DNA of 17,360 nucleotides, from the IMG/VR virus record IMGVR_UViG_2645728010_000005. One strand, given 5' to 3'. Under the pieces are notes generated by a model. That model worked only from the letters and a program-made list of their open reading frames with translations, ran no database searches and was not told where the DNA came from. Each line of letters opens with the position of its first letter. The stretch's first letter is position 1. Position numbers and translations under genes: made by a program. Origin of the DNA: a virus. Its lineage: Duplodnaviria; Heunggongvirae; Uroviricota; Caudoviricetes. Of this stretch, positions 777 to 15,063 are shown in pieces.

Positions 777-2752
777 TCAGCTAATCATGATGCCTGCAGT
801 GGCTTTCTTCATCACCACAACCAGCAAATCGCTGATACTTGCTGTGGGATACCAGCCATTTACCAGCCATGCCGATACAGAAAATTCCAGTGTCATTACA
901 CCACTGCCTGCAGGCATATCAATAACACCCGTATATATCAGCGTATTATCCAGAGCCGTTCGGTTATAAATTTCAGCACCGTTTTTTCGTACTATCAGAC
1001 GGCATGAGGAGTAGATATCAGTATGATCTTGCTCATGTTTAGCGCCACTGAATGCCACCGCCGGAATAACAATTTGCCGGTCAAACGGCTGATCGTCATA
1101 AACCCTGACGGTAATGGTCCCTGATGGCCACCGCTCCGGTGCACGGGAGTCCCGGGGGAAAGCTTTGCCCACTGTTTTAACGAGATCGCCTTCAATCTGG
1201 TTCGCGGACAGTTTTCCCAGAACCCGGCAGTTCTCGTTAATCGTGACGTTGTTGAGCGTCCCGGAGTTCGCATTCACGTTACCGCTAATATCGGCATTTT
1301 TCGCCGTCAGCCGCCCGTCCGGTGTCAGGGAAAATGCCGGAGGATTACCGCCGCTGGTAATGGTGGGAGCCGTCAGATATTTCAGGAACACTTCGTTCAT
1401 GAATATCTGATCGCCCTGACCAACAAACATCGGCTTTGTGTTGCCATTCGCAGGATTAATCATCGCAATCCTGTCCGCCGCCAGCAGCACCTGACTCTGC
1501 ATACCGTCAGGGGTATTCTCAATACCGGCACCAATACCCGCGATATAAAGGCGTCCGTCCTGCATCTGCTGCAGCTTCACAGCCCACATGCTGTTCAGGT
1601 TATTATTTGTATCAACCTGAACCTTCTGTATCTGCTGGATTGCCGCACTCTGGTCTTCCAGTTTCTTATTGACGGTCTGCGTGATTTCATTACTGACATC
1701 CGTGATGGACGTTCTGATTTCCGCCAGGTCAGGCGCAAGCTGACCGTTATCAATCTGCGTCCACAACTCCTGAGCCAGATGGGTTTTCCCTATCTCTCCT
1801 TTGAAAAAATTCAGATAGCCGGATGCATCATCACTCGGCTGGCCAACAGCCTCCACGAATGCCGATTTGCCAACGGTGTTCACACTGCGGATGTAAAAAT
1901 AATAATCATGGCCCGGTTTGATATTGATACTGGCGGCTATCCAGTACAGCGCCGTGCCAAGATAGCGTGCTGTGGTTTCAACCTGCCTGATATCCGCAAT
2001 CCGCTTTTCCGAGAACCAGAACTCAAACTGTACCGTCGGATCATAAACCGCAAGATGCGGCGTGGCGGTTATCTGAAAATACCCCGGTGTCAGCTCAATC
2101 TGCGACGGCGCTGCCGGTGCGGCAATCCGGAACGATACCGACGCCGGCTCGCCCTGCTGCCCCCACGCATTTACTGCCCGGACTGTCAGCCTGTAGTTCC
2201 CCAGAGCCAGTTGTGTGAAGCGGTAAGTGGTTTCCGTCGTCCGGGCCGTGCTGACCAGTCGCTCACGGCCGTCATCCGCTGCCACGGTCAGGCGAAGCAG
2301 GAAGCTCACGCCCTTCACCACCTTCGGCGTATCCCAGCGGGCCAGCACCTGGTATTCCCCGCTGTCTGCGGTGACTTCTGCGGTCAGGTGCTGCACCGCT
2401 GGCGGCGTGACACCATTTACCGTGCCGCTCTGGTCGCCGTCAAAGTGCGCCCCGTTATCCACGATGGCCTCTTTTTCCGGTACATGCTGCACGGCGGTGA
2501 TGGCATACGTGCCGTCGTCGTTCTCACGGATACTCACGCAGCGGAACAGGCGCTGGCGCAACGTCGGCAGCTTCAGCCCCCATATGCCGGCTTAAACGTT
2601 CCGTCCCAGATACCGCTGTATTGCCGCGTCTGCGGGTTATAGTTCGACGGCACCTGCAGAATGCGCCCGCGAAGATGATAATTACGGCTCACCTGCTGGC
2701 TGCCGAACTGCTCCGAGTCCACCTGCACGCCGACCAGTGCCGTGTTCGGGTA
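777..2752 (-). pseudogene. J: Tail tip / host-specificity protein J remnant: C-terminal ~600 codons (777..~2582, track ORF starts at a TTG) plus a ~55-codon internal J segment in a different frame (~2582..2752)
   Basis: Minus-strand ORF 777..2561 (594 aa) contains [45 protein letters not shown]... and downstream blocks typical of lambda J (fibronectin-like region, [20 protein letters not shown]). A second minus-strand frame over 2583..2752 reads [57 protein letters not shown], which matches a more N-terminal part of J. Lambda J is ~1130 aa. Confidence 0.7.
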
Positions 2753-3257
2753 TCAGTTCATCCAGCGCGGCTGCTTTGTTCATGGCTTTGATGATATCCC
2801 GTTTCAGGAAATCAACATGTCGGTTTTCCAGTTCCGGAAAACGCCGCTGCACCGACAGGGGGATCCCGTCGAGAATACTGGCAATTTCACCTGCGATCCG
2901 CGACAGCACGAAAGTACAGAATGCGGTTTCCACCACTTCAGCGGAGTCTCTGGCATTTTTCAGCTCCTGTGCGTCGGCCTGCGCACGCGTAAGTCGATGG
3001 CGTTCGTACTCAATAGTCCCTGGCTGGAGATCTGTCTCGCTGGCCTGCCGCAGTTCTTCAACTTCCCGGCGCAGCTTTTCGTTCTCAATTTCAGCATCCC
3101 TTTCGGCATACCATCTTATAACGGCGGCAGAGTCATAAAGCACCTCATTACCCTTGCCACCGCCTCGCAGAACGGGCATTCCCTGTTCCTGCCAGTTCTG
3201 AATGGTACGGATACTCGCACCGAAAATGTCAGCCAGCTGCTTTTTGTTGACTTCCAT
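2682..3257 (-). CDS. nohD: Terminase small subunit Nu1 homolog, Nu1-like for ~170 codons then 21 unrelated codons (J-derived sequence read out of frame)
   Basis: ATG at 3257. Translation MEVNKKQLADIFGASIRTIQNWQEQGMPVLRGGGKGNEVLYDSAAV... is near-identical to lambda Nu1 up to ...AALDELIP, then diverges (EHGTGRRAGGLGAVRQPAGEP). Confidence 0.8.
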   Translation of the reverse strand: MEVNKKQLADIFGASIRTIQNWQEQGMPVLRGGGKGNEVLYDSAAVIRWYAERDAEIENEKLRREVEELRQASETDLQPGTIEYERHRLTRAQADAQELKNARDSAEVVETAFCTFVLSRIAGEIASILDGIPLSVQRRFPELENRHVDFLKRDIIKAMNKAAALDELIPEHGTGRRAGGLGAVRQPAGEP

Positions 3258-4525: not shown

Positions 4526-4987
4526 CTATCTGCACTGCTCATTAATATACTTCTGGGTTCCTTCCAGTTGTTTTTGCATAGTGATCAGCCTCTCTCTGAG
4601 GGTGAAATAATCCCGTTCAGCGGTGTCTGCCAGTCGGGGGGAGGCTGCATTATCCACGCCGGAGGCGGTGGTGGCTTCACGCACTGACTGACAGACTGCT
4701 TTGATGTGCAACCGACGACGACCAGCGGCAACATCATCACGCAGAGCATCATTTTCAGCTTTCGCATTAGCTAACTCCTTCGTGTATTTTTCATCCAGTG
4801 CAGCAACATCACGCTGGCGCATCTGCATGTCAGTAATTGCCGCGTTCGCCAGCTTCAGTTCTCTGGCATTTTTGTCGCGCTGGGCTTTGTAGGTAATGGC
4901 GTTATCACGGTAATGATTAACAGCCCATGACAGGCAGACGATGATGCAGATAACCAGAGCGGAGATAATCGCGGTTACTCTGTTCAT
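4526..4987 (-). CDS. rzpD: Spanin, inner-membrane subunit Rz (i-spanin)
   Basis: [55 protein letters not shown]..., 153 aa with an N-terminal TM helix. The ATG overlaps the endolysin stop (ATGA). Confidence 0.85.
4585..4767 (-). CDS. rzoD: Spanin, outer-membrane lipoprotein subunit Rz1 (o-spanin), embedded in the +1 frame of Rz
   Basis: 60 aa [24 protein letters not shown]... with lipobox VVGC and a proline-rich core ([15 protein letters not shown]); lies entirely inside Rz. Confidence 0.8.
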
Positions 4988-5481
4988 TGCTGACCCCACA
5001 AACAGATTTCACGCTCAATCTCACGACGAGTCATGAGACCTTTCCATTGCTTACCGCCAGCATATGTCCAGCGACGTAGCTGATCACATGCGCCTTTGAT
5101 ATCGCCCTGGTTTATTTTGCGAAGAAGCGTCGATGTTCTGAAATTGCCAGCGCCCACGTTGTAAACGAACGAGTAAAGAGCGCCGCGCGTTGTTTCCGGT
5201 ATATCAACTTTTATGTACGGGTTAATTTGTCTGGCGACCGTGGCAAGGTCTTTATTCAGGAGGGCTTTGCATTCTGCTTTGGTATACGTTTTACCGAGCA
5301 TGATGTCTTTTCCTGTATGCCCGTGACATACAGTCCATACACCAACAATATCTTTGTATGGTATGTAGCTGACACCTTCCAGACCATCGTTACCACTTGG
5401 GCCAGTGATTAACACTGATGCTATAGCAATTGCTCCGCCACCAATAGCAGCAGCAACGGCTTTTCGTAATGATGGAGGCAT
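4984..5481 (-). CDS. rrrD: SAR endolysin (phage 21 R-type lysozyme with N-terminal signal-anchor-release domain)
   Basis: 165 aa; the N-terminus [27 protein letters not shown] is a weakly hydrophobic Gly/Ala-rich SAR segment, followed by a lysozyme-like body. Matches DLP12 RrrD / phage 21 R as I recall them. Confidence 0.9.
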
Positions 5482-5696
5482 TATTCACCTCTCGCAGCCT
5501 TGCGCTTATCTTCTTTAATCTTGAAATAAAGGTTTGTCAGGTACGTCAGCAGGCCAAATACCAGGCTACCCAGCACACCTATTGCTGCCCACTGTGAGGG
5601 CGTGACTTTATCGAGCAGCTGTAAAAACCAGTAACCGGCACTACCTGCTGAGGTGCCATAGGCGACACCCGTTGTTAACTTATCCATGGATTTCAT
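5481..5696 (-). CDS. essD: Class II holin / pinholin (phage 21 S-type) with dual-start motif M-K-S-M
   Basis: ATG 5696 with SD GAGGTG; 71 aa [71 protein letters not shown] with two TM segments. The track ORF start at 5741 is a TTG extension. Confidence 0.85.
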
Positions 5697-5911
5697 AACC
5701 CCACCTCGCAGACAAAGCGGGTGTAAATTGAGGGAATACAACGTATCGCAAAAAAGCAGAAACGTAACAGACTCGGAGTCAGTGAATAACTCAGGTATTG
5801 AGTTATCAGCTAATATCGAGACTCAAAAAATGGAAAAACCAGCTCGACGGCGGGTTTAAGCTGTGTGACGAAGTAACCACTCTTAACAGCATAACCAATT
5901 TTTTACGTACG

Positions 5912-6048
5912 TAAACCACTGAATGATATTTATGAGAATGCTACCGAGTGTTCAAAACACCACCACAAATATATAAGAAAACCTCAACAAATAACCAATA
6001 AATAATTTCCGGCGTTATTTTTAGTTGATTTAAATTAAACCACTGAAT
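5912..6048. repeat. 13-bp direct repeat TAAACCACTGAAT at 5912..5924 and 6036..6048 in the AT-rich porin upstream region
   Basis: Read directly from the sequence; both copies lie in the non-coding region 5742..6284. Confidence 0.6.
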
Positions 6049-6918
6049 TATAGAACCCCCATAAATAACAGCCATTAATATAAATTAGCTAATAGGTTTA
6101 TTTTTGTTCAAATAAGAGCCATAAATAGGTTTCGATAGAAAAAGTTCAGATAAAAATAGAGATCTACTTCACAAATTAAATGAGAAACTAAAACTTACAT
6201 CTTGAAATAATCACATTGATTAGATGAATATTTATCGCGCAGTGACATCATTTTTTAATAATAGTTCAAAAAAAAGGGCTCACGATGAAAAAATTAACAG
6301 TGGCAATTTCTGCTGTAGCTGCATCAGTACTGATGGCGATGTCTGCTCAGGCAGCTGAAATTTATAATAAAGACAGTAACAAGCTGGATCTGTACGGGAA
6401 AGTTAATGCCAAGCACTACTTTTCCTCTAACGATGCAGATGATGGTGATACTACTTATGCCCGTCTTGGCTTCAAAGGTGAAACCCAAATCAACGATCAA
6501 CTGACTGGTTTCGGTCAGTGGGAATATGAATTCAAAGGCAACCGCGCTGAATCTCAAGGTTCCTCCAAAGACAAAACCCGTCTTGCATTTGCAGGCCTGA
6601 AATTCGGTGACTACGGCTCAATCGATTACGGCCGTAACTACGGTGTAGCATACGACATCGGTGCGTGGACTGACGTTCTGCCAGAATTCGGTGGCGATAC
6701 CTGGACCCAAACAGATGTGTTCATGACTGGTCGCACCACTGGTGTTGCAACCTATCGTAACAACGACTTCTTTGGTCTGGTCGATGGCCTGAACTTTGCT
6801 GCTCAGTATCAGGGTAAAAATGACCGCACTGACGTAACTGAAGCCAATGGTGATGGTTTCGGTGGTGATGCTGCCAACTTACTGATTTAGTGTATGATGG
6901 TGTTTTTGAGGTGCTCCA

Positions 6919-7194
6919 GTGGCTTCTGTTTCTATCAGCTGTCCCTCCTGTTCAGCTACTGACGGGGTGGTGCGTAACGGCAAAAGCACCGCCGGACATC
7001 AGCGCTATCTCTGCTCTCACTGCCGTAAAACATGGCAACTGCAGTTCACTTACACCGCTTCTCAACCCGGTACGCACCAGAAAATCATTGATATGGCCAT
7101 GAATGGCGTTGGATGCCGGGCAACTGCCCGCATTATGGGCGTTGGCCTCAACACGATTTTACGTCACTTAAAAAACTCAGGCCGCAGTCGGTAA
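6919..7194 (+). CDS. insA: IS1 InsA (transposition inhibitor / N-terminal part of the transposase)
   Basis: 91 aa [43 protein letters not shown]... with a zinc-finger CxxC...CxxC; canonical InsA. Confidence 0.9.
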
Positions 7195-7616
7195 CCTCGC
7201 GCATACAGCCGGGCAGTGACGTCATCGTCTGCGCGGAAATGGACGAACAGTGGGGCTATGTCGGGGCTAAATCGCGCCAGCGCTGGCTGTTTTACGCGTA
7301 TGACAGGCTCCGGAAGACGGTTGTTGCGCACGTATTCGGTGAACGCACTATGGCGACGCTGGGGCGTCTTATGAGCCTGCTGTCACCCTTTGACGTGGTG
7401 ATATGGATGACGGATGGCTGGCCGCTGTATGAATCCCGCCTGAAGGGAAAGCTGCACGTAATCAGCAAGCGATATACGCAGCGAATTGAGCGGCATAACC
7501 TGAATCTGAGGCAGCACCTGGCACGGCTGGGACGGAAGTCGCTGTCGTTCTCAAAATCGGTGGAGCTGCATGACAAAGTCATCGGGCATTATCTGAACAT
7601 AAAACACTATCAATAA
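7113..7616 (+). CDS. insB: IS1 InsB reading frame (expressed as the InsAB' transposase by -1 frameshift)
   Basis: 167 aa ...[28 protein letters not shown]...; canonical InsB, overlapping insA in the -1 frame. Confidence 0.85.
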
Positions 7617-8153
7617 GTTGGAGTCATTACCGGTTTCGGTTTCTCCACTACTTATGAGTATGAAGGATTCGGCGTGGGTGCAACCTATGCTAAATCAGAT
7701 CGCACTGACGGTCAGGTCGCCTATGGTAAGAGCAAATTCAATGCCTCCGGCAAAAATGCGGAAGTATGGGCTGCAGGCCTGAAATATGATGCGAACAATA
7801 TCTATCTGGCTACCACATATTCTGAAACTCAGAATATGACCGTTTTTGGTAATAACCATATTGCAAACAAAGCACAAAACTTTGAAGCAGTAGCACAATA
7901 TCAGTTTGACTTCGGTCTGCGACCATCTGTTGCTTACCTTCAGTCAAAAGGTAAAGACCTTGGTGTTCATGGTGACCGAGACTTAGTCAAGTATGTCGAT
8001 GTCGGTGCTACTTACTACTTTAATAAAAACATGTCCACTTTTGTTGATTACAAAATCAACTTAATTGACGATAGTAAGTTTACCAAAACAGCTGGTATTG
8101 ATACCGACGACATCGTCGCTGTAGGTCTGGTGTATCAGTTCTAATCTGATTAC

Positions 8154-8333: not shown

Positions 8334-8717
8334 TTAATTAGAGTTATTAACAACGATATCCATCTCTAACCGGATATCTAATGCCATTAACATCCCTTCA
8401 ATTATGCCCTCAGCCTTCTGTAACCTTTTCCCGATATAACCATCAGAGCAGCAATGCTTACCTGCCAGTGACATGAATGTCATACCGACTACATAATAAT
8501 CTACTAATAAATCATGCAAATCGCTGTTGTTCTTTTTCAGACGGGCCATGCACCCGCAAATGATCATCGCGTCATCGTCACAACATTGTGGGCGAGATTT
8601 TACTTTTGAAGGAATTAATCCCTTAAAACCGGCGGCAATGGACGACCAGGTCACATCTTCATGATTATTAGCCGCCCACGCTCCCCAACGCTCAAGAACC
8701 ATCTGAATATCACGCAT
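8334..8717 (-). CDS. quuD: Late-gene antiterminator Q (short, DLP12 QuuD-like)
   Basis: ATG 8717; 127 aa [24 protein letters not shown]... with a Cys-rich zinc-binding region ([16 protein letters not shown]). The track ORF has a 5-codon upstream extension. Confidence 0.85.
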
Positions 8718-8802
8718 CAACTTACTCCACAAAACTCAGACCAGAACGCCAATTACAAGCAAAAATCAACAAAACAGTATTAGTTGATTGTTATCTCTGA
8801 CT

Positions 8803-8925
8803 TCATACTCCTGCTCCTGTCAGTGTTTTGGCGTAATTCTTCAGTATTCGGTAATCGGTCAAAACAGAACCGGGGAAACGATATAAGCGCAGGCGCATCC
8901 AGCGGTGGCGAAGAAGTTCTGCCAT
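8803..8925 (-). CDS. Small basic ORF between rusA and Q (ylcG-like), 40 aa
   Basis: ATG 8925, MAELLRHRWMRLRLYRFPGSVLTDYRILKNYAKTLTGAGV, stop TGA 8803..8805. Position corresponds to ylcG in DLP12; coding status is uncertain. Confidence 0.35.
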   Translation of the reverse strand: MAELLRHRWMRLRLYRFPGSVLTDYRILKNYAKTLTGAGV

Positions 8926-9752: not shown

Positions 9753-10207
9753 TACGCCTCCTGCTTATCACGCAGCAGCTGGAACTCGCAGCTCTGCGGA
9801 ATAGTCAGGTGGCAGCCAATATTCATCGCCCAGGCTTCAACCTTACACAGGAAGACATACATCTCTCCGGTATCAAGGTCGGAGGTATGGCGTAACGACT
9901 GGATAGTGGTGATATCACCGGTTACGACATCAACCAGGTCTTTGGTTTCATAACCGAGATATGTGTGTTTGAGAGCATCTTTTACCCAAGCTGGAGTGGC
10001 GAACGTTTTACCCCTGCTGATGAGGTATTCACTGATTTCGCTGTACCACATGTGGCTGAGTGCATTCTGGGAAAGACTGCGTTTCTCACGCCACGGTTTA
10101 AGCACCATGCGAAAGCATTTGCCCTCCTCCAGATAAGGCTGGATCTGCCGACCGATAGCGGTGAAGTTGCCGCGATGTAATTTGATGCCGTCTTGTGAGA
10201 GGTTCAC
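9752..10207 (-). CDS. ybcN: NinB-like recombination protein (DUF1367, YbcN)
   Basis: 151 aa, GTG start preceded by GGAGGTG; contains ...[23 protein letters not shown]..., resembling the NinB family. Confidence 0.75.
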
Positions 10208-10305
10208 GCTTCACCTCCGCAGAGGTCAAACGCTAGATGCAAAGAATTGCAGGTGCATTTCTGCATCTGTGAAGGGAGAAGAGAGTTTGGATTGTATGTG
10301 CGCAT
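10204..10305 (-). CDS. Small ORF (33 aa) between ybcM and ybcN, ylcH-like
   Basis: ATG 10305, [33 protein letters not shown]; its stop overlaps the ybcN start. Coding status is uncertain. Confidence 0.3.
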
Positions 10306-10421
10306 AAACGTCCCCGTTTAGCGCAGAAGTCACCGGAGTTGTTCAGGCTCCGGTGACATAATTATGCCGTGTTGATTTCCCAAAATCAAAATCGATAGAA
10401 TTGCTCCTTCTTAAAACACTT

Positions 10422-11219
10422 TTACTCTCTGGAAGCTTTTCTTATCTCTCTTGGTGTTATATTAAAACGATTATGAAATCTTTCAGTAAAACGAGAAGGA
10501 CACTTATAACCATTTTCTCTGGCAATCTCGCTTATAGGTTTTACCGTCGTTTGTATAGCAGACAACGCATTATTTAACCTCACATCGTCCAGTATACTTT
10601 GGAAACTTACCCCCTCGCTTGCTAGACGGCGATGTAATGTAGAAACAGAAATGTAGAGATATCGAGCAACCTTGTTTGCTGTCCATTTTGTGCCGGGTTC
10701 GGATAGCAGCAGGTTATAACAACGACTTATCAATGATTGTTTACTATATGATAAAAGTAAATGATTAACATGATTCACTCCTAACGAAAGTAGAACGCCC
10801 ATTGCTAAGTGCTCCTGAATTTTAGTTGAGAAGCCTCGGGAAACAGATGTTTTTAGTTGCTCCCAACAATATATTAACTCAGGATTCTGAGGTAAAAAGA
10901 AACTTGTTTTGTTACGTATTTGATCAGTTACCGTATAAAGTTTTTGGAAACTCTCAATTAAATCAATGGGTAAGTAAAGCATTTCTGCAAGATAAAGCCC
11001 TGCTTCAGGATAATTCTCAATATAAAATTCATAACCACAAGGAAATAATATTATTTGATTATTATCAACAGTTAAAGTATGCGTCTCCCAATTGATAACT
11101 TTCTTTCCCTGACGGATACGACACAAAGCTGGCATAAGAGGCTTAACCCTATGAATCTCATGATGTTTATGCATCCGTATTTCTTCGATCTTTAAGTTAG
11201 TCTTACCTCTTGCCAGCAT
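10422..11219 (-). CDS. ybcM: AraC/XylS-family transcriptional regulator
   Basis: 265 aa; C-terminal dual-HTH AraC signature (...[42 protein letters not shown]...[21 protein letters not shown]). Confidence 0.85.
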
Positions 11220-11228
11220 ACTCTCACC

Positions 11229-11780
11229 CTACTTTATCTCATAAACTGGTGTTATCTCAGCGGTTGCGATTTTATTAGCATTAAGCATATAACCAACTAA
11301 CGCTCCGCTGGAGTTAGAATCTACAGGAATCTTTTCAGTTTTTAGAGCCCATACTTTAAACTGGTAATGATGTGGTTTATCTCCTTTAGGAGGACATGCG
11401 CCACCAAACCCAGCATAGCCAAAATCATTTCGGCCTTGAACAGCACCAGTCGGCAGTTTTGTTCCATCACGTCTCCCTGCATCAACGGGCAAATATGTTA
11501 CTGTTGCTGGAATATTAACAACAGTCCAATGCCACCAACCACTGCCTGTAGGTGCATCTGGATCATATACAGTTACGGCAAAGCTTTTGGTACCTTCAGG
11601 AACACCAGACCAGGTTAATGAGGGCGATGTATTACCACCTTCACACCCAAATCCAGAAAAGACATGAGACGTTGTAAGTTGCTCTCCTGTTTTTATTTCA
11701 TTACTAGTGACCTGAAATGCTGCAGCCTGCGCAGAAAATGTTATGAATGCCAATACAGTTGAAACGATAAGTGTTTTCAT
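11229..11780 (-). CDS. ybcL: Periplasmic PEBP/RKIP-family protein (YbhB/YbcL, UPF0098)
   Basis: 183 aa with signal peptide MKTLIVSTVLAFITFSAQAAA and PEBP motifs (DPDAP...GWWHW...HHYQFKVWAL). Confidence 0.85.
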   Translation of the reverse strand: MKTLIVSTVLAFITFSAQAAAFQVTSNEIKTGEQLTTSHVFSGFGCEGGNTSPSLTWSGVPEGTKSFAVTVYDPDAPTGSGWWHWTVVNIPATVTYLPVDAGRRDGTKLPTGAVQGRNDFGYAGFGGACPPKGDKPHHYQFKVWALKTEKIPVDSNSSGALVGYMLNANKIATAEITPVYEIK

Positions 11781-11996
11781 AAAAACCTCTTTGTTATGAC
11801 CTATCGTTATTTTATTTGATATTCCTTTATCTCATTATGCATAAAGGCGCAATGTTCATGCAAAAGCAATCACAATTGTACCCCCAACCCAATTATTTGC
11901 CACAATATACACAAAGCACATTGATACTATCTAAAAACTCTGCTTTATTATTAGTAATACCTACGAAAGTCGGTGTTATTTTTTAACCTACCATTC

Positions 11997-12046
11997 AAAA
12001 TACGTGACATACACCATTTTGCTCATAATAATTTGTCACGTATTTT
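11997..12046. repeat. 13-bp perfect inverted repeat AAAATACGTGACA (11997..12009) / TGTCACGTATTTT (12034..12046) with a 24-bp spacer
   Basis: Read directly from the sequence; lies in the ybcK-ybcL intergenic region about 200 bp below the ybcK stop. Confidence 0.65.
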
Positions 12047-12244
12047 CAGTATTTGAATCTGCGACCAAGAGTTCTCACCTAACAAATGATTAAGATTGTA
12101 TAGCTCATTTACTACCCCAATACAGCCGTACAAAACTCGCTTGTGGGAGCAAACAAAGTAATTACCCATTAAGTTTCGTTAAAGATAATTAATTCTGTCT
12201 TGCACTTTATCACCATAGCATAACTTAAAATCCGAGATCATTAT

Positions 12245-13771
12245 TTAGAAATAAATCTCACCATCAACCATATATTTGAGAGCACTTATCGCCTGCTGGG
12301 CGGATATTACTTTCATTAAAGGATAGTGTTTAAAAACAATGCCATTCATAAAATAGATATCACAGGTTTTATTATCCGTATTAATTATGATTTTTTCGAA
12401 TGTTTTATAGGCAAGTGTACGGCATAACTCTCGTCCATTTTTACTGGTTAAGTCAATAGCATAAAAATCACTGAATGAATTTACACCTTTACTCTTCAAA
12501 GTTTTCAATGATACCGAAGCCCTTCGTAATTCCTTATCTAATAGTCTTATTTTCTCTGCTATAGCGGTAACTTCAGGCGCGACAGACAATGCAACGATTA
12601 AATTATTAATTTTCATCTGAAGCTCAATAATTTTTAACTCTAAAGTTTCATTAGCATCTTTCTTGTTTTCAACTGGTTGAATTTTGCTACAATTAAAAAG
12701 CAATTCATTAATGATATTATAATCAACCAAATCTCTTTTTATTGATGGCCTGTCACATCGATGTAATCTTCTCATCGGACAAACATAATAGCCATGCAAA
12801 CTTCCAGATACCGCATGAACAATCATGGTATTACCACAAGCCTCACACTTCATAACTGTTCGAAGTAGATTTATTAGCATAGGATTCTTGCTACTATTGC
12901 TAATACCAAAAGGTGCCAACCGAATTTCCTGTACAGCGTAAAACAAATCATCTGATATGACTCTGGGATAATAGCCAGCGATTTCACTTATCCCTTTCCC
13001 TCTTGCACGATATGAAGGTACGCATATACCTATCAGAGCTTTATTCGCTAATAATTTTTCAATTACAGAAGGTCCCCATGCACTTTCTTTTCCTGAGAAA
13101 TTCTTTACAGCATGATCATTTAAATACTTGGCTATTGCATTCAATGAGCGCCTTTCCATCCTGAGTTTAAAAATTAGCTCAATAGTTTTCACCCTGTCGG
13201 GGTCTGGAACAAAAGCCGTTCTTTTGTCATCTAAGGAGAGCCATCTCGGACAAGACGCCGTCATAATCGTACCTGATTCCAGTGCATCCTGCCGTTTTTT
13301 CTTCCATGATAATTTAACCCGACTTGACTTTATCTCGCTTTCTTCATTTGCCCTTTGTGCTATAAGTATGGCTTTTATTAATGAATATGGCTCATTCAAA
13401 GAGTCAATATTATAGACTGTATTGTCGCAAAGAGTTATAACATCAATACCGTGATTCAAAATCAATTTCAGACGTTCAATCGCTTCACCGACTTTTTCTC
13501 TTGAAAGTCTGTCCAGACTTTCAACTAACAATGTAGTTCCTGGCAATATATAACCATGCTCTATAGCATCTAAAAATTCCGAAAAAGCTCCTGATTGTGC
13601 ATGCTTTCCTTTGAATGCACTTAATCCTAAATCTTCATATGTTATGGTATCAAGATAATAATCACTATTTACCTTTAACCATTCAGCAATAAGTCTTCTC
13701 TGTCGGTTTAATGAGTCGCCAGACATCTGACCTGGTGATGAAAATCGCATATATGCTATGGCTTTTTTCAT
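12245..13771 (-). CDS. ybcK: Large serine recombinase (resolvase-like catalytic domain, recombinase domain, Cys-rich zinc-ribbon region)
   Basis: 508 aa; N-terminus MKKAIAYMRFSSPGQ carries the catalytic-serine motif of serine recombinases; Cys cluster CEACGNTMIVH...YYVCPMRRLHRCDRP; coiled-coil-like C-terminal region. Confidence 0.85.
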   Translation of the reverse strand: MKKAIAYMRFSSPGQMSGDSLNRQRRLIAEWLKVNSDYYLDTITYEDLGLSAFKGKHAQSGAFSEFLDAIEHGYILPGTTLLVESLDRLSREKVGEAIERLKLILNHGIDVITLCDNTVYNIDSLNEPYSLIKAILIAQRANEESEIKSSRVKLSWKKKRQDALESGTIMTASCPRWLSLDDKRTAFVPDPDRVKTIELIFKLRMERRSLNAIAKYLNDHAVKNFSGKESAWGPSVIEKLLANKALIGICVPSYRARGKGISEIAGYYPRVISDDLFYAVQEIRLAPFGISNSSKNPMLINLLRTVMKCEACGNTMIVHAVSGSLHGYYVCPMRRLHRCDRPSIKRDLVDYNIINELLFNCSKIQPVENKKDANETLELKIIELQMKINNLIVALSVAPEVTAIAEKIRLLDKELRRASVSLKTLKSKGVNSFSDFYAIDLTSKNGRELCRTLAYKTFEKIIINTDNKTCDIYFMNGIVFKHYPLMKVISAQQAISALKYMVDGEIYF

Positions 13772-13950
13772 GGTGACACCTGCTAACGTATGCTTTTATA
13801 AACCTTAGTGGTGGGATATAATTTTTGTTTAATTTTTATTTAAAAAGACAATTAAGGTCACATTATCTTGAATATACAACAATAATCGTATTGCAATTTT
13901 CTTACGCCATAATCTTGAAAGCACAAAAGAATACATAAAAAATAAAGACA

Positions 13951-13996
13951 TTAACAAAAAGCATAAAACGAGGCTCATATAAATATAAGAGCCTCC
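13951..13996 (-). terminator. Putative intrinsic terminator downstream of emrE
   Basis: Stem GAGGCTC/GAGCCTC (13970..13976 / 13989..13995) with a 12-nt AT loop, followed on the minus strand by a T-rich run (GTTTTATGCTTTTTG). Confidence 0.35.
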
Positions 13997-14025
13997 ATAT
14001 TTTAGTCGTTTAGAAACAAATTATT

Positions 14026-14358
14026 TTAATGTGGTGTGCTTCGTGACAATAAATTAATAACCAACACACCGGCACAAATCAACATCATGCCTATAATGGC
14101 TGGCAGGTCCAGCCGTTGGCCGAAAAATCCCCATAACAGTAAGCTAATCAGGACAATACCGACTCCTGACCAGATACCATAAGCAATCCCTGTAGGAATA
14201 TAAGCCAGCGTCTGAGCTAATAACCAGAATGATGCACAATAACAAATAATTGTACCAACAGATGGCCATAACCGTGTAAAACCTTCTGAAAACTTCATTA
14301 AGGTTGTACCAATGACCTCTGCAAGTATTGCACCACCAAGATAAATATAAGGGTTCAT
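14026..14358 (-). CDS. emrE: EmrE small multidrug resistance (SMR) efflux transporter
   Basis: ATG 14358; 110 aa MNPYIYLGGAILAEVIGTTLMKFSEGFTRLWPSVGTIICYCASFWLLAQTLAYIPTGIAYGIWSGVGIVLISLL..., four TM helices with the conserved membrane Glu14. The track ORF has an 18-codon upstream extension. Confidence 0.95.
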   Translation of the reverse strand: MNPYIYLGGAILAEVIGTTLMKFSEGFTRLWPSVGTIICYCASFWLLAQTLAYIPTGIAYGIWSGVGIVLISLLLWGFFGQRLDLPAIIGMMLICAGVLVINLLSRSTPH

Positions 14359-14697
14359 AGCATATTCTTTCCTGTTCAAACTGGAGAGAATTGTACTACA
14401 GTTTGAACTCAACTCACCTGTTTCATCATTGTGTTCCCATTGATGTTCTTTTATATACCCTCAGTACCCGTTTCATCGCGGCACTCTGGCGACACTCCTT
14501 AAAAATCAGATTCGTGCTCACCTTTCCTTCCCGTTCTTCTCTGGTAGCGAACCGGTAATACACCGTTCGCCAGACCTTACCATCAACGACCAGGATTCCT
14601 GCCCGCGCCATTTTAGCCGCAGCCTGATTTATGCTGGTTACGGTTGCACCTGTTGGCCCGCATGTTCTGGTACAAGTTGGTAACCAACCAGTAAGCA

Positions 14698-15063
14698 ATG
14701 GGATATGCCTCTGGTTATGTCTGGTTGAATCCACCATACAGCAATATTTCCCCTTTTGTGAAAAAGGCAGCCACTGAAAACAAATTCAGCAGTGTGGGAT
14801 GTGTAATGTTATTACCTGCTGACACATCTGTCGGATGGTTTCATGAAGCGATACAAACCGCCAGTGAGGTCAGATTCATCACGGCAGGACGACTGGCATT
14901 TATTAACCCACTCACCGGGAAACACGTCAGTGGAAATAATAAAGGCTCGATGCTCATTATCTGGCACCCATACCCCCGTACACACTGCCACTTTACGACC
15001 GTTGATCGTGGAGAGTTGATGGCGTTCGGCTCAAGGATTCTTGCCCGTCGGGAGGCTGCATGA
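14698..15063 (+). pseudogene. Phage Dam-type N6-adenine DNA methyltransferase, probably a 5'-truncated remnant
   Basis: 121 aa MGYASGYVWLNPPYSNISPFVKKAATENKFSSVGCVMLLPADTSVGWFHEA...; the NPPY catalytic motif sits at residues 11..14 and an in-frame TAA lies 4 nt upstream of the ATG. In the phage Dam family as I recall it, about 60 aa precede this motif. Confidence 0.5.

Follow-up and report, generated by a model that had tools for sequence, protein, structure and literature searches.

The emrE-ybcK-ybcL-ybcM block of prophage DLP12 as a layered mosaic in a variable slot between ren and the nin promoter

Introduction

How did four genes with no apparent part in phage propagation come to lie inside a lambdoid prophage, and did the serine recombinase encoded by one of them bring them there? 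The question is raised by IMG/VR record IMGVR_UViG_2645728010_000005, a stretch of 17,360 nucleotides that we analyzed as a whole and refer to as the window. A first-pass annotation made from the letters alone had described an AT-rich block at 10422-14358 that encodes an AraC-type regulator, a PEBP protein, a serine recombinase, and EmrE, and it proposed that this block was acquired separately, occupies the immunity/replication position, and may be what is left of a small mobile element that the recombinase brought in. We find that the block is the already annotated emrE-ybcK-ybcL-ybcM cargo of the cryptic prophage DLP12, real but ordinary. We hold it highly probable that the locus is best explained jointly by cargo of DLP12, a variable slot between ren and the nin promoter, a layered mosaic structure, homologous exchange of cassettes, and a separate deletion of the immunity genes.

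Identity, composition, and limits of the block

The whole window is 100% identical to the DLP12 cryptic lambdoid prophage of Escherichia coli B/BL21(DE3) (NC_012971, 533908-551267, reverse strand), and the block is 99.8% identical to DLP12 of K-12. Membership in this prophage follows from sequence identity and from the gene order of the argU-integrated element, and the RefSeq names emrE, ybcK, ybcL, and ybcM are those given in the annotation of a near-identical copy in E. coli C. The B copy differs from that of K-12 by an insertion sequence (IS), IS1, in the porin gene and by a deletion of 272 base pairs (bp) in ren/P where K-12 has IS3, which makes no essential difference. Four co-oriented genes do lie where the first-pass annotation put them, all on the minus strand and with Pfam families that agree with its assignments; two small annotated open reading frames (ORFs), ylcJ and ylcH, had been overlooked. 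All of them already have names, in a prophage that is among the most thoroughly studied, and the block on its own offers few new lessons. Its features are as follows; GC denotes guanine plus cytosine content.

10391..14434, minus strand: whole accessory (cargo) region, the ren / nin-promoter slot (GC 0.37 versus 0.48 elsewhere, homology limits, BL21(DE3) identity)
10422..11219, minus strand: ybcM, AraC-family transcriptional regulator (Pfam HTH_18, PF12833, 9.5e-17, and HTH_AraC; RefSeq ybcM)
11229..11780, minus strand: ybcL, periplasmic PEBP/Raf-kinase-inhibitor-like protein (Pfam PBP, PF01161, 3.2e-42)
11781..12244, minus strand: AT-rich intergenic region between ybcK and ybcL (GC 0.328; breakpoints by blastn)
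12245..13771, minus strand: ybcK, predicted intact large serine recombinase of the phage serine-integrase type (Pfam Resolvase, Recombinase, and Zn_ribbon_recom)
13772..14025, minus strand: AT-rich leader 5' of ybcK with the doubtful ORF ylcJ (GC 0.272)
13829-13978, minus strand: ylcJ, annotated ORF of 49 codons (Pfam YlcJ, 2.4e-35)
11936..14018, minus strand: 2,083-bp ybcK segment comprising ylcJ, ybcK, and flanks (blastn against the fliE-locus relic)
14026..14358, minus strand: emrE, SMR efflux transporter (Pfam Multi_Drug_Res, PF00893, 2.6e-33)

The AT-richness noted earlier by eye is borne out by measurement, including that of the two intergenic regions listed above. The GC is 0.368 in 10205-14434 and 0.484 in the rest of the window, and the lowest-GC 4.2-kb stretch of the entire window begins at 10251. 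The GC of third codon positions (GC3) is 0.255-0.351 for the genes of the block (0.286 for ybcM) versus 0.41-0.62 for the phage core genes. Because both GC and GC3 are clearly different from those of the phage core, the reading of the block as foreign DNA stands, and the block has the distinct base composition and codon usage of the accessory phage genes known as morons. The part of the first-pass annotation that saw a separately acquired insertion is thereby upheld: the block is accessory DNA of foreign composition, and close relatives carry quite different genes at the same place.

The true limits of this DNA are slightly wider than those of its four genes, 10391 on the left and approximately 14434 on the right. 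Every relative examined, including those with quite different cargo, matches the window as far as 10390/10391, where the similarity breaks off. At the right-hand limit, the match to the relic near fliE described below stops at 14434, just beyond the ren stop codon, and homology to PhiR30_1 starts again at 14466, within ren. Position 10391 is directly upstream of a putative nin promoter, TTGATT (10389-10384) separated by 17 nucleotides from CATAAT (10366-10361), and the phage 82 record X92588 labels a putative -35, a putative -10, and a "possible regulator-binding site" before orf33 (ylcH). Between this putative promoter and ylcH lies a perfect 10-bp inverted repeat, GTCACCGGAG ... CTCCGGTGAC (10357-10329), which corresponds to the possible regulator-binding site of phage 82.

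Position of the block and loss of the immunity region

The proposal that the block occupies the immunity/replication position does not survive comparison with prophages that have an intact immunity region. PhiR34_1, in effect an undeleted DLP12, reads int ... gam, bet, exo ... cI, cro, cII, O, P, ren in its left part; ren is followed by emrE, ylcJ, ybcK, ybcL, and ybcM, and these by ybcN, ninE, ybcO, rusA, ylcG, Q, porin, S, R, Rz, bor, Nu1, and A. Phage Perceval and an apparently complete prophage of KC-Dl-1 have the same layout with other cargo. Because these intact relatives keep cI-cro-cII-O-P-ren beside the block, which lies 3' of ren and 5' of the nin genes, their gene order assigns it to a slot of its own, bordered by ren, where the replication module ends, and by the nin operon promoter. 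The slot of PhiR30_1 contains genes for a lipoprotein and an acyltransferase and a small ORF, and neither emrE nor ybcK.

The immunity and replication genes of DLP12 were lost through an independent neighboring deletion, separate from the acquisition of the cargo. Approximately 6 kb of PhiR34_1 (most of P, O, cII, cro, cI, and recombination genes) is missing directly to the right of the block in the window, and what marks the deletion in DLP12 is 44 bp of P joined to an incomplete dam gene (the P'::'dam scar, 14653-15063). The flanks of the slot contain the following features.

10204..10389, minus strand: left flank, start of the nin operon, with the putative promoter, the inverted repeat, and ylcH/orf33 (phage 82 record X92588)
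10305-10204, minus strand: ylcH/orf33, annotated small ORF
14426..15063, strand not assigned: right flank and deletion scar (E. coli C annotation; blastn to loci L001, L003, and L007)
14426-14653, minus strand: ren, 5'-truncated (phrog_142, Ren-like)
14653-14696, minus strand: internal P fragment of 44 bp (annotation and blastn)
14695-15063, plus strand: dam, N-terminally truncated (Pfam Dam, profile positions 60-168 of 169)

At 14653/14654 the B-strain copy is without 272 bp found in E. coli C and K-12, a loss that takes in the 5' end of ren together with the 3' end of P. An IS3 lies in the neighborhood of ren in K-12, so that ren is a pseudogene in K-12 and in B by different lesions.

Modular structure and alternative cassettes

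The block is not a single element but a layered mosaic of at least three modules: emrE beside ren, the 2.1-kb ybcK segment, and an exchangeable cassette, which in the window is ybcL-ybcM. We surveyed 80 IMG/VR prophage loci that encode YbcK at 97-100% identity, and all 80 read P/ren-emrE-ylcJ-ybcK-X-ylcH-ybcN, where X takes at least 10 lengths or spacings and includes at least seven unrelated alternative cassettes. The ybcL-ybcM pair is the occupant in 28 of the 80. Elsewhere X is a gene on the opposite strand for an alpha/beta hydrolase (esterase) of the BD-FAE type; a gene for a protein of 118, 169, or 260 residues without known function; one of two shorter forms; a deletion form typical of O157 that is without ybcL-ybcM; or, in three loci, a 1581-bp form encoding the 309-residue prophage abortive-infection protein BstA (PADLOC, 3.6e-121; phrog_6287). 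In most of the forms without ybcL-ybcM, a 107-residue ORF with a P22 antirepressor C-terminal domain directly follows ybcK. The same 1.33-kb IS (IS2-like, with a two-ORF transposase) has inserted independently in two loci (L039, L092), once within ybcL and once directly after ybcK.

Pairwise comparisons place the joints between modules. The O157, KC-Dl-1, and Perceval forms have other sequence in place of 10391-12174/12203, which holds ybcM, ybcL, and upstream DNA. Relative to the fliE-locus form, the window has an additional 2,083 bp (11936-14018) consisting of ylcJ, ybcK, and their AT-rich flanks, and by blastn the window segments 10205-11935 and 14019-14434 are contiguous in loci L002 and L005 with 4 bp between them; this segment is the only discrete insertion/deletion in the block. 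The intergenic region 11781-12244 is accordingly a composite, of which 11781-11935 is the ybcL upstream region in common with the fliE relic, 11936-12174 occurs only in the DLP12 type, and 12175-12244 is the conserved 3' flank of ybcK. Prevalence differs among the modules as well: across 5,426 complete E. coli genomes, ybcK is present in 1,424, all four block genes in 668, and ybcL-ybcM in 3,258 (667 at 99% identity or more and 2,589 at 90-95%). The block is also dispensable, given that close relatives have other genes or none at this position, and it or its variants are carried by functional, plaque-forming phages.

We propose that cassettes are most likely swapped when lambdoid phages and prophages that share a host cell recombine homologously in conserved flanks, with ren/emrE/ybcK on one side and the nin promoter/ylcH/ybcN on the other, and that new cassettes probably enter through rare illegitimate joints that survive at gene boundaries. 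Temperate phages are reported to exchange DNA with DLP12 by relaxed homologous recombination (PMC3945230). Four points weigh against our account. The proposed exchange mechanism draws on the pattern of conserved flanks and on published experiments with other regions of DLP12. The three phages that carry the full block were grown on hosts that possibly contained DLP12, and they could be laboratory recombinants that gained it. A promoter scan, which is uninformative in AT-rich DNA, found 18 sites versus 17.3 expected from shuffled sequence and so singled out no promoter from which a given cargo gene would be expressed in the lysogen. Finally, an intact recombinase under strong purifying selection, always beside a variable cassette and in the same slot of distant lambdoids, goes unexplained by purely passive cargo.

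YbcK and the origin of the block

To judge from its sequence, YbcK is a large serine recombinase that is intact and subject to purifying selection. It contains the Pfam domains Resolvase (PF00239, 5.5e-19), Recombinase (PF07508), and Zn_ribbon_recom (PF13408), matches the PHROGs integrase family phrog_95 (4e-120), and combines a catalytic domain bearing the serine and Arg/Asp residues with a C-terminal recombinase domain, zinc ribbon, and coiled coil. R9, S11, Q15, D87, R88, R91, and the four cysteines of the zinc ribbon are invariant across 16 homologs down to 28% identity. A search of the PDB with the single YbcK sequence gave no match; only the family profile reached the A118 integrase structure 4KIS (3.7e-15, over residues 191-475), and it also matches the TP901-1 catalytic domain. 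The ratio of nonsynonymous to synonymous substitution rates (dN/dS) of ybcK is 0.07-0.08 between prophage lineages. The three-domain architecture, catalytic serine motif, zinc ribbon, and coiled-coil region are those of phage large serine integrases of the A118, TP901-1, and phiC31 type; unlike these, YbcK is encoded away from the prophage ends in E. coli, in a phage that already has a tyrosine integrase (IntD), and no attachment (att) sites were found. An indirect phenotype, sabinene tolerance, has been reported upon ybcK over-expression (PMC7181518).

Full-length relatives of YbcK at 40-61% identity occur across Enterobacterales, and everywhere the GC of the gene is below that of its surroundings. 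In Atlantibacter, Yersinia, and Erwinia the homolog follows the tail-fiber genes at a prophage edge, in Atlantibacter 540 bp from the 3' end of ssrA, and in Citrobacter koseri and on a metagenomic IncFII plasmid it lies in plasmid-like DNA. Two lambdoid prophages have a homolog in the same relative slot, between the replication genes and nin/Q: one of Pantoea dispersa (42%) and an enterobacterial prophage, L098 (59%). The Pantoea prophage, like that of E. coli, has its own tyrosine integrase. In L098 the slot also holds a gene for a 646-residue SIR2-domain protein (4755-6695). A DUF1367 gene is present there twice, as an 81-residue fragment just upstream of the recombinase gene (8673-8918) and as a full copy downstream (11653-12249), a duplication that hints at an insertion or recombination scar.

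The small ORF ylcJ has a GC of 0.25 and shows six nonsynonymous and no synonymous differences from the KC-Dl-1 copy (L004), a pattern from which we suspect that it may not be a real protein gene, despite its Pfam family. As a candidate partner of ybcK, possibly a directionality factor, it was rejected given that no homolog lies near distant YbcK genes and that the substitution pattern is not coding-like.

Searches for the sites at which a serine recombinase might act were negative within their reach. The ends of the block and of the ybcK segment have only short, chance-level matches as direct or inverted terminal repeats. When the two flanks of each of eight YbcK-family genes were compared with each other, inverted symmetry did not exceed that of shuffled controls, a weak test given that att sites are short and imperfect, and with the same caveat no cognate att sites flanking mobilized DNA were recognized. 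No flank motif is conserved among these eight loci except a 5' leader common to the two closest relatives. When the cassette-side ends were aligned, they had nothing in common and contained no attC-like or att-half-site-like sequence, and only the phage-side nin promoter was common; a "GATA(A/G)TTAAT"-like motif seen at several junctions was rejected on this alignment. Distant YbcK loci have no homologs of EmrE, YbcL, YbcM, YlcH, YbcN, or Ren.

Three alternative roles for the recombinase can be weighed against this background. The first, which we regard as unlikely, is that only the 2.1-kb ybcK segment is a mobile unit that inserted itself into an older emrE-ybcL-ybcM cargo, the rest being ordinary phage cargo. 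In its favor are the clean difference from the fliE relic, 2,083 bp versus 4 bp, and the occurrence of YbcK homologs everywhere as single genes with AT-rich, low-GC flanks of 200-650 bp in different kinds of element, including two prophage accessory regions and plasmids. The difference could equally be a deletion in the fliE lineage, however, and a divergence of approximately 8-10% blurs the exact joints. The flanks also have neither att-like inverted symmetry nor a motif common between loci beyond the 5' leader of the two closest relatives, and ybcK occupies one identical position in all 80 E. coli viral loci, with no sign of recent movement.

A second possibility, for which we see rather little room, is that YbcK is a working phage part, serving site-specific exchange of the neighboring cassette, a second route of integration, or a regulatory or defense role. 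A dN/dS of about 0.07 with an invariant catalytic core, the constant proximity of YbcK to a hypervariable cassette, and the 59% and 42% homologs in the replication-to-nin/Q slot of other lambdoid prophages, one of them near a SIR2-domain gene, are what would be expected of such a part; yet the cassettes have in common no sequence resembling a recombination site, PhiR30_1 carries alternative cargo in this slot without ybcK, none of the 80 E. coli prophage loci has ybcK at its end, and YbcK has no match in PADLOC. The wider conjecture that YbcK-type recombinases are a conserved functional fixture of the lambdoid replication-to-nin slot, where they might mediate cassette capture or exchange, alternative integration, or DNA rearrangement controlling accessory or defense genes, is in our opinion equally doubtful.

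The third is the proposal of the first-pass annotation that all four genes form a single small mobile element, or what remains of one, which was inserted by its own recombinase. YbcK is indeed an apparently intact, integrase-type large serine recombinase, the entire block is compositionally foreign, and the homologs of Atlantibacter, Yersinia, and Erwinia lie at prophage edges, as is often the case for integrases. The proposal is nonetheless largely refuted, and we deem it very improbable: ybcK occurs with at least seven other cassettes and emrE-ybcL-ybcM occurs without ybcK, the prevalences of the modules are unequal, the ends of the block have neither direct nor inverted repeats and no homolog is surrounded by inverted symmetry above that of shuffled sequence, and the other block genes are absent from distant YbcK loci. 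For the block as a whole, the different distributions of its modules and the lack of att-like symmetry speak against delivery by the recombinase.

The prophage relic at the fliE locus

The trio emrE-ybcL-ybcM is also found without ybcK, at approximately 90-93% identity, between fliE and yedK in about 2,600 genomes, for example those of EcN and GN03449. This locus also holds a phage-type porin gene, a nin promoter, ylcH, and a 99-bp 3' fragment of the Q antiterminator gene quuD that is fused directly to the sequence of window position 10205, on the ylcH side. The junction (window 8432 / 10205) is identical in EcN and GN03449 (L002 9903-10001, L005 4903-5001), which implies that the fliE relic descends from one ancient decay event. 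All three cargo genes are intact, with dN/dS of 0.04-0.15 relative to the DLP12 copies (0.04-0.06 for emrE and 0.12-0.14 for ybcM). Because the locus has the porin, the quuD fragment fused at 10205, and an end of homology at the ren stop codon, we read it as a decayed DLP12-like prophage with retained cargo rather than as an independent chromosomal source. GN03449 has an IS200/IS605 transposase gene in place of the porin, and its yedK is truncated.

That emrE-ybcL-ybcM instead began as a chromosomal locus beside fliE, from which a phage took it up, is scarcely credible, for although the trio lies among core genes between fliE and yedK in thousands of genomes and ybcL-ybcM is found at 90-95% identity in 2,589, the phage porin, the 99-bp quuD fragment fused to window position 10205, the nin promoter, ylcH, and homology that ends exactly at the ren stop codon are the signature of a decayed DLP12-like prophage.

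All occurrences of the block detected in E. coli belong to lambdoid phages or to relics of them, and the only truly non-lambdoid context found is the ybcL-ybcM pair on an IncFII plasmid of Citrobacter freundii, at 78% and 60% protein identity. The first-pass annotation had held that confinement to lambdoid immunity regions would speak against an independent insertion; in spirit the block is so confined, with the Citrobacter ybcL-ybcM pair, at 70% identity, as the sole exception. A small recombinase beside that pair was considered as a relative of YbcK and rejected as an ordinary resolvase.

In EcN, ybcL is almost identical to the DLP12 copy (synonymous divergence, dS, of 0.03), whereas dS is 0.22-0.26 for the adjoining ybcM and emrE. 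This contrast suggests recombination between DLP12-type and fliE-type loci. The YbcL of the window is the K-12-type allele with V99 (V78 of the mature protein), and its sole difference from the EcN fliE-relic copy is V99T (window 11229-11780 vs. L002 11025-11576 and L005 6025-6576). We take V78T to be the difference between YbcL of K-12 and of uropathogenic E. coli; apart from the residue number, the assignment comes from a review and from the observed V99T. The form of YbcL in uropathogenic strains is reported to suppress neutrophil migration and is one residue different from that of K-12 (PMC4810123). The V99T difference fits this reported functional difference.

Function and expression of the cargo

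The cargo benefits the host rather than the virion, through drug and antiseptic efflux by EmrE and through the periplasmic PEBP protein YbcL with the AraC-type regulator YbcM. EmrE is a proton-coupled exporter of multiple drugs and quaternary ammonium compounds. The protein encoded in the window has the 110 residues, membrane-embedded Glu14, and full four-helix SMR domain (PF00893, 2.6e-33) of an SMR transporter and belongs to phrog_1395, in the moron category. YbcL has a signal-peptide-like N-terminus, and the pairing of a PEBP protein with an adjoining AraC-type helix-turn-helix regulator is kept both in the fliE relic and on the Citrobacter plasmid. A benefit to the host explains why emrE-ybcL-ybcM outlived the complete decay of the sister prophage beside fliE.

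The cargo genes are co-oriented with the early-right transcript and would therefore be read through from pR during lytic growth. In the lysogen they would depend on their own signals and be largely silenced as AT-rich foreign DNA. A Rho/NusG-dependent terminator (t_ybcK) has been described in the untranslated region upstream of ybcK, which is up-regulated in rho mutants (PMC4150792), and Hfq together with polyphosphate binds ybcK DNA (PMC10954037). Published work already treats the DNA of the block as a case of AT-rich foreign DNA that is kept silent. An Rfam scan of the window found no RNA family.

Comparison with known systems

The slot most resembles the moron and accessory hotspots of temperate phages (lambda rexAB-type cI-N, P2/P4 defense), which likewise have conserved flanks, unrelated and mostly single-gene cassettes, foreign composition, and host-benefit or anti-phage genes, including BstA in some variants of the slot. 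It differs from them in its location, between ren and the nin promoter and not at the cI-N site where BstA is usually reported (PMC8585504), and in that a large serine recombinase is the constant neighbor of the variable cassette. A known defense gene is thus among the alternative occupants (BstA, 3 of 80 loci); the occupant in the window is not a known defense system, and PADLOC has no match for YbcK, YbcL, YbcM, or EmrE. Integron-type cassette capture also places a recombinase gene beside a site of alternating unrelated cassettes, but the DLP12 slot has no attC/attI-like repeats or other conserved recombination sites at the cassette borders, its recombinase is a serine and not a tyrosine recombinase, and each phage has one cassette, not an array.

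The comparison adds three modest points to what is known of DLP12. In lambda-like coliphages, the junction between ren and the nin promoter is a hypervariable slot for accessory genes, among them BstA, drug-efflux, and host-interaction genes. The widespread "chromosomal" emrE-ybcL-ybcM locus near fliE, which in EcN has the ybcL allele T99 (T78 of the mature protein), is the domesticated remnant of a DLP12-like prophage. The apparently intact, selectively maintained serine integrase that accompanies the slot in several lambdoid lineages poses a cheap, testable question for phage biologists.

Other features of the prophage

In window orientation, and with genes on the minus strand unless marked, the E. 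coli C annotation gives the order J fragment, Nu1, ylcI (+), bor/iss (+), rzpD, rrrD, essD, porin (+), quuD, ylcG, rusA, ybcO, ninE, ybcN, ylcH, ybcM, ybcL, ybcK, ylcJ, emrE, ren, P fragment, dam fragment (+), three small early-left genes (+), and intD (+), after which the genome continues with tRNA-Arg. Pfam matches in the window include Q, RusA, YbcO, a NinB-like protein, and the integrase. Almost directly after Nu1 (2682-3257) comes the C-terminal part of the tail-tip gene J, 594 codons long (777-2561), and nearly all head and tail genes have gone from this part of the window (777-3257) through another large deletion.

The porin is a second, separate piece of cargo, also retained in the fliE relic. 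Its gene (6285-8144, plus strand), a phage-borne nmpC/ompD-like gene, is interrupted by a 768-bp IS1 at 6864-7631 with a 9-bp target duplication, GGTTTCGGT, at 6855-6863 and 7632-7640, and it is intact in E. coli C and in related phages. Upstream of it, between the lysis genes and Q, lies a second AT-rich trough with a GC of 0.32 (5742-6284).

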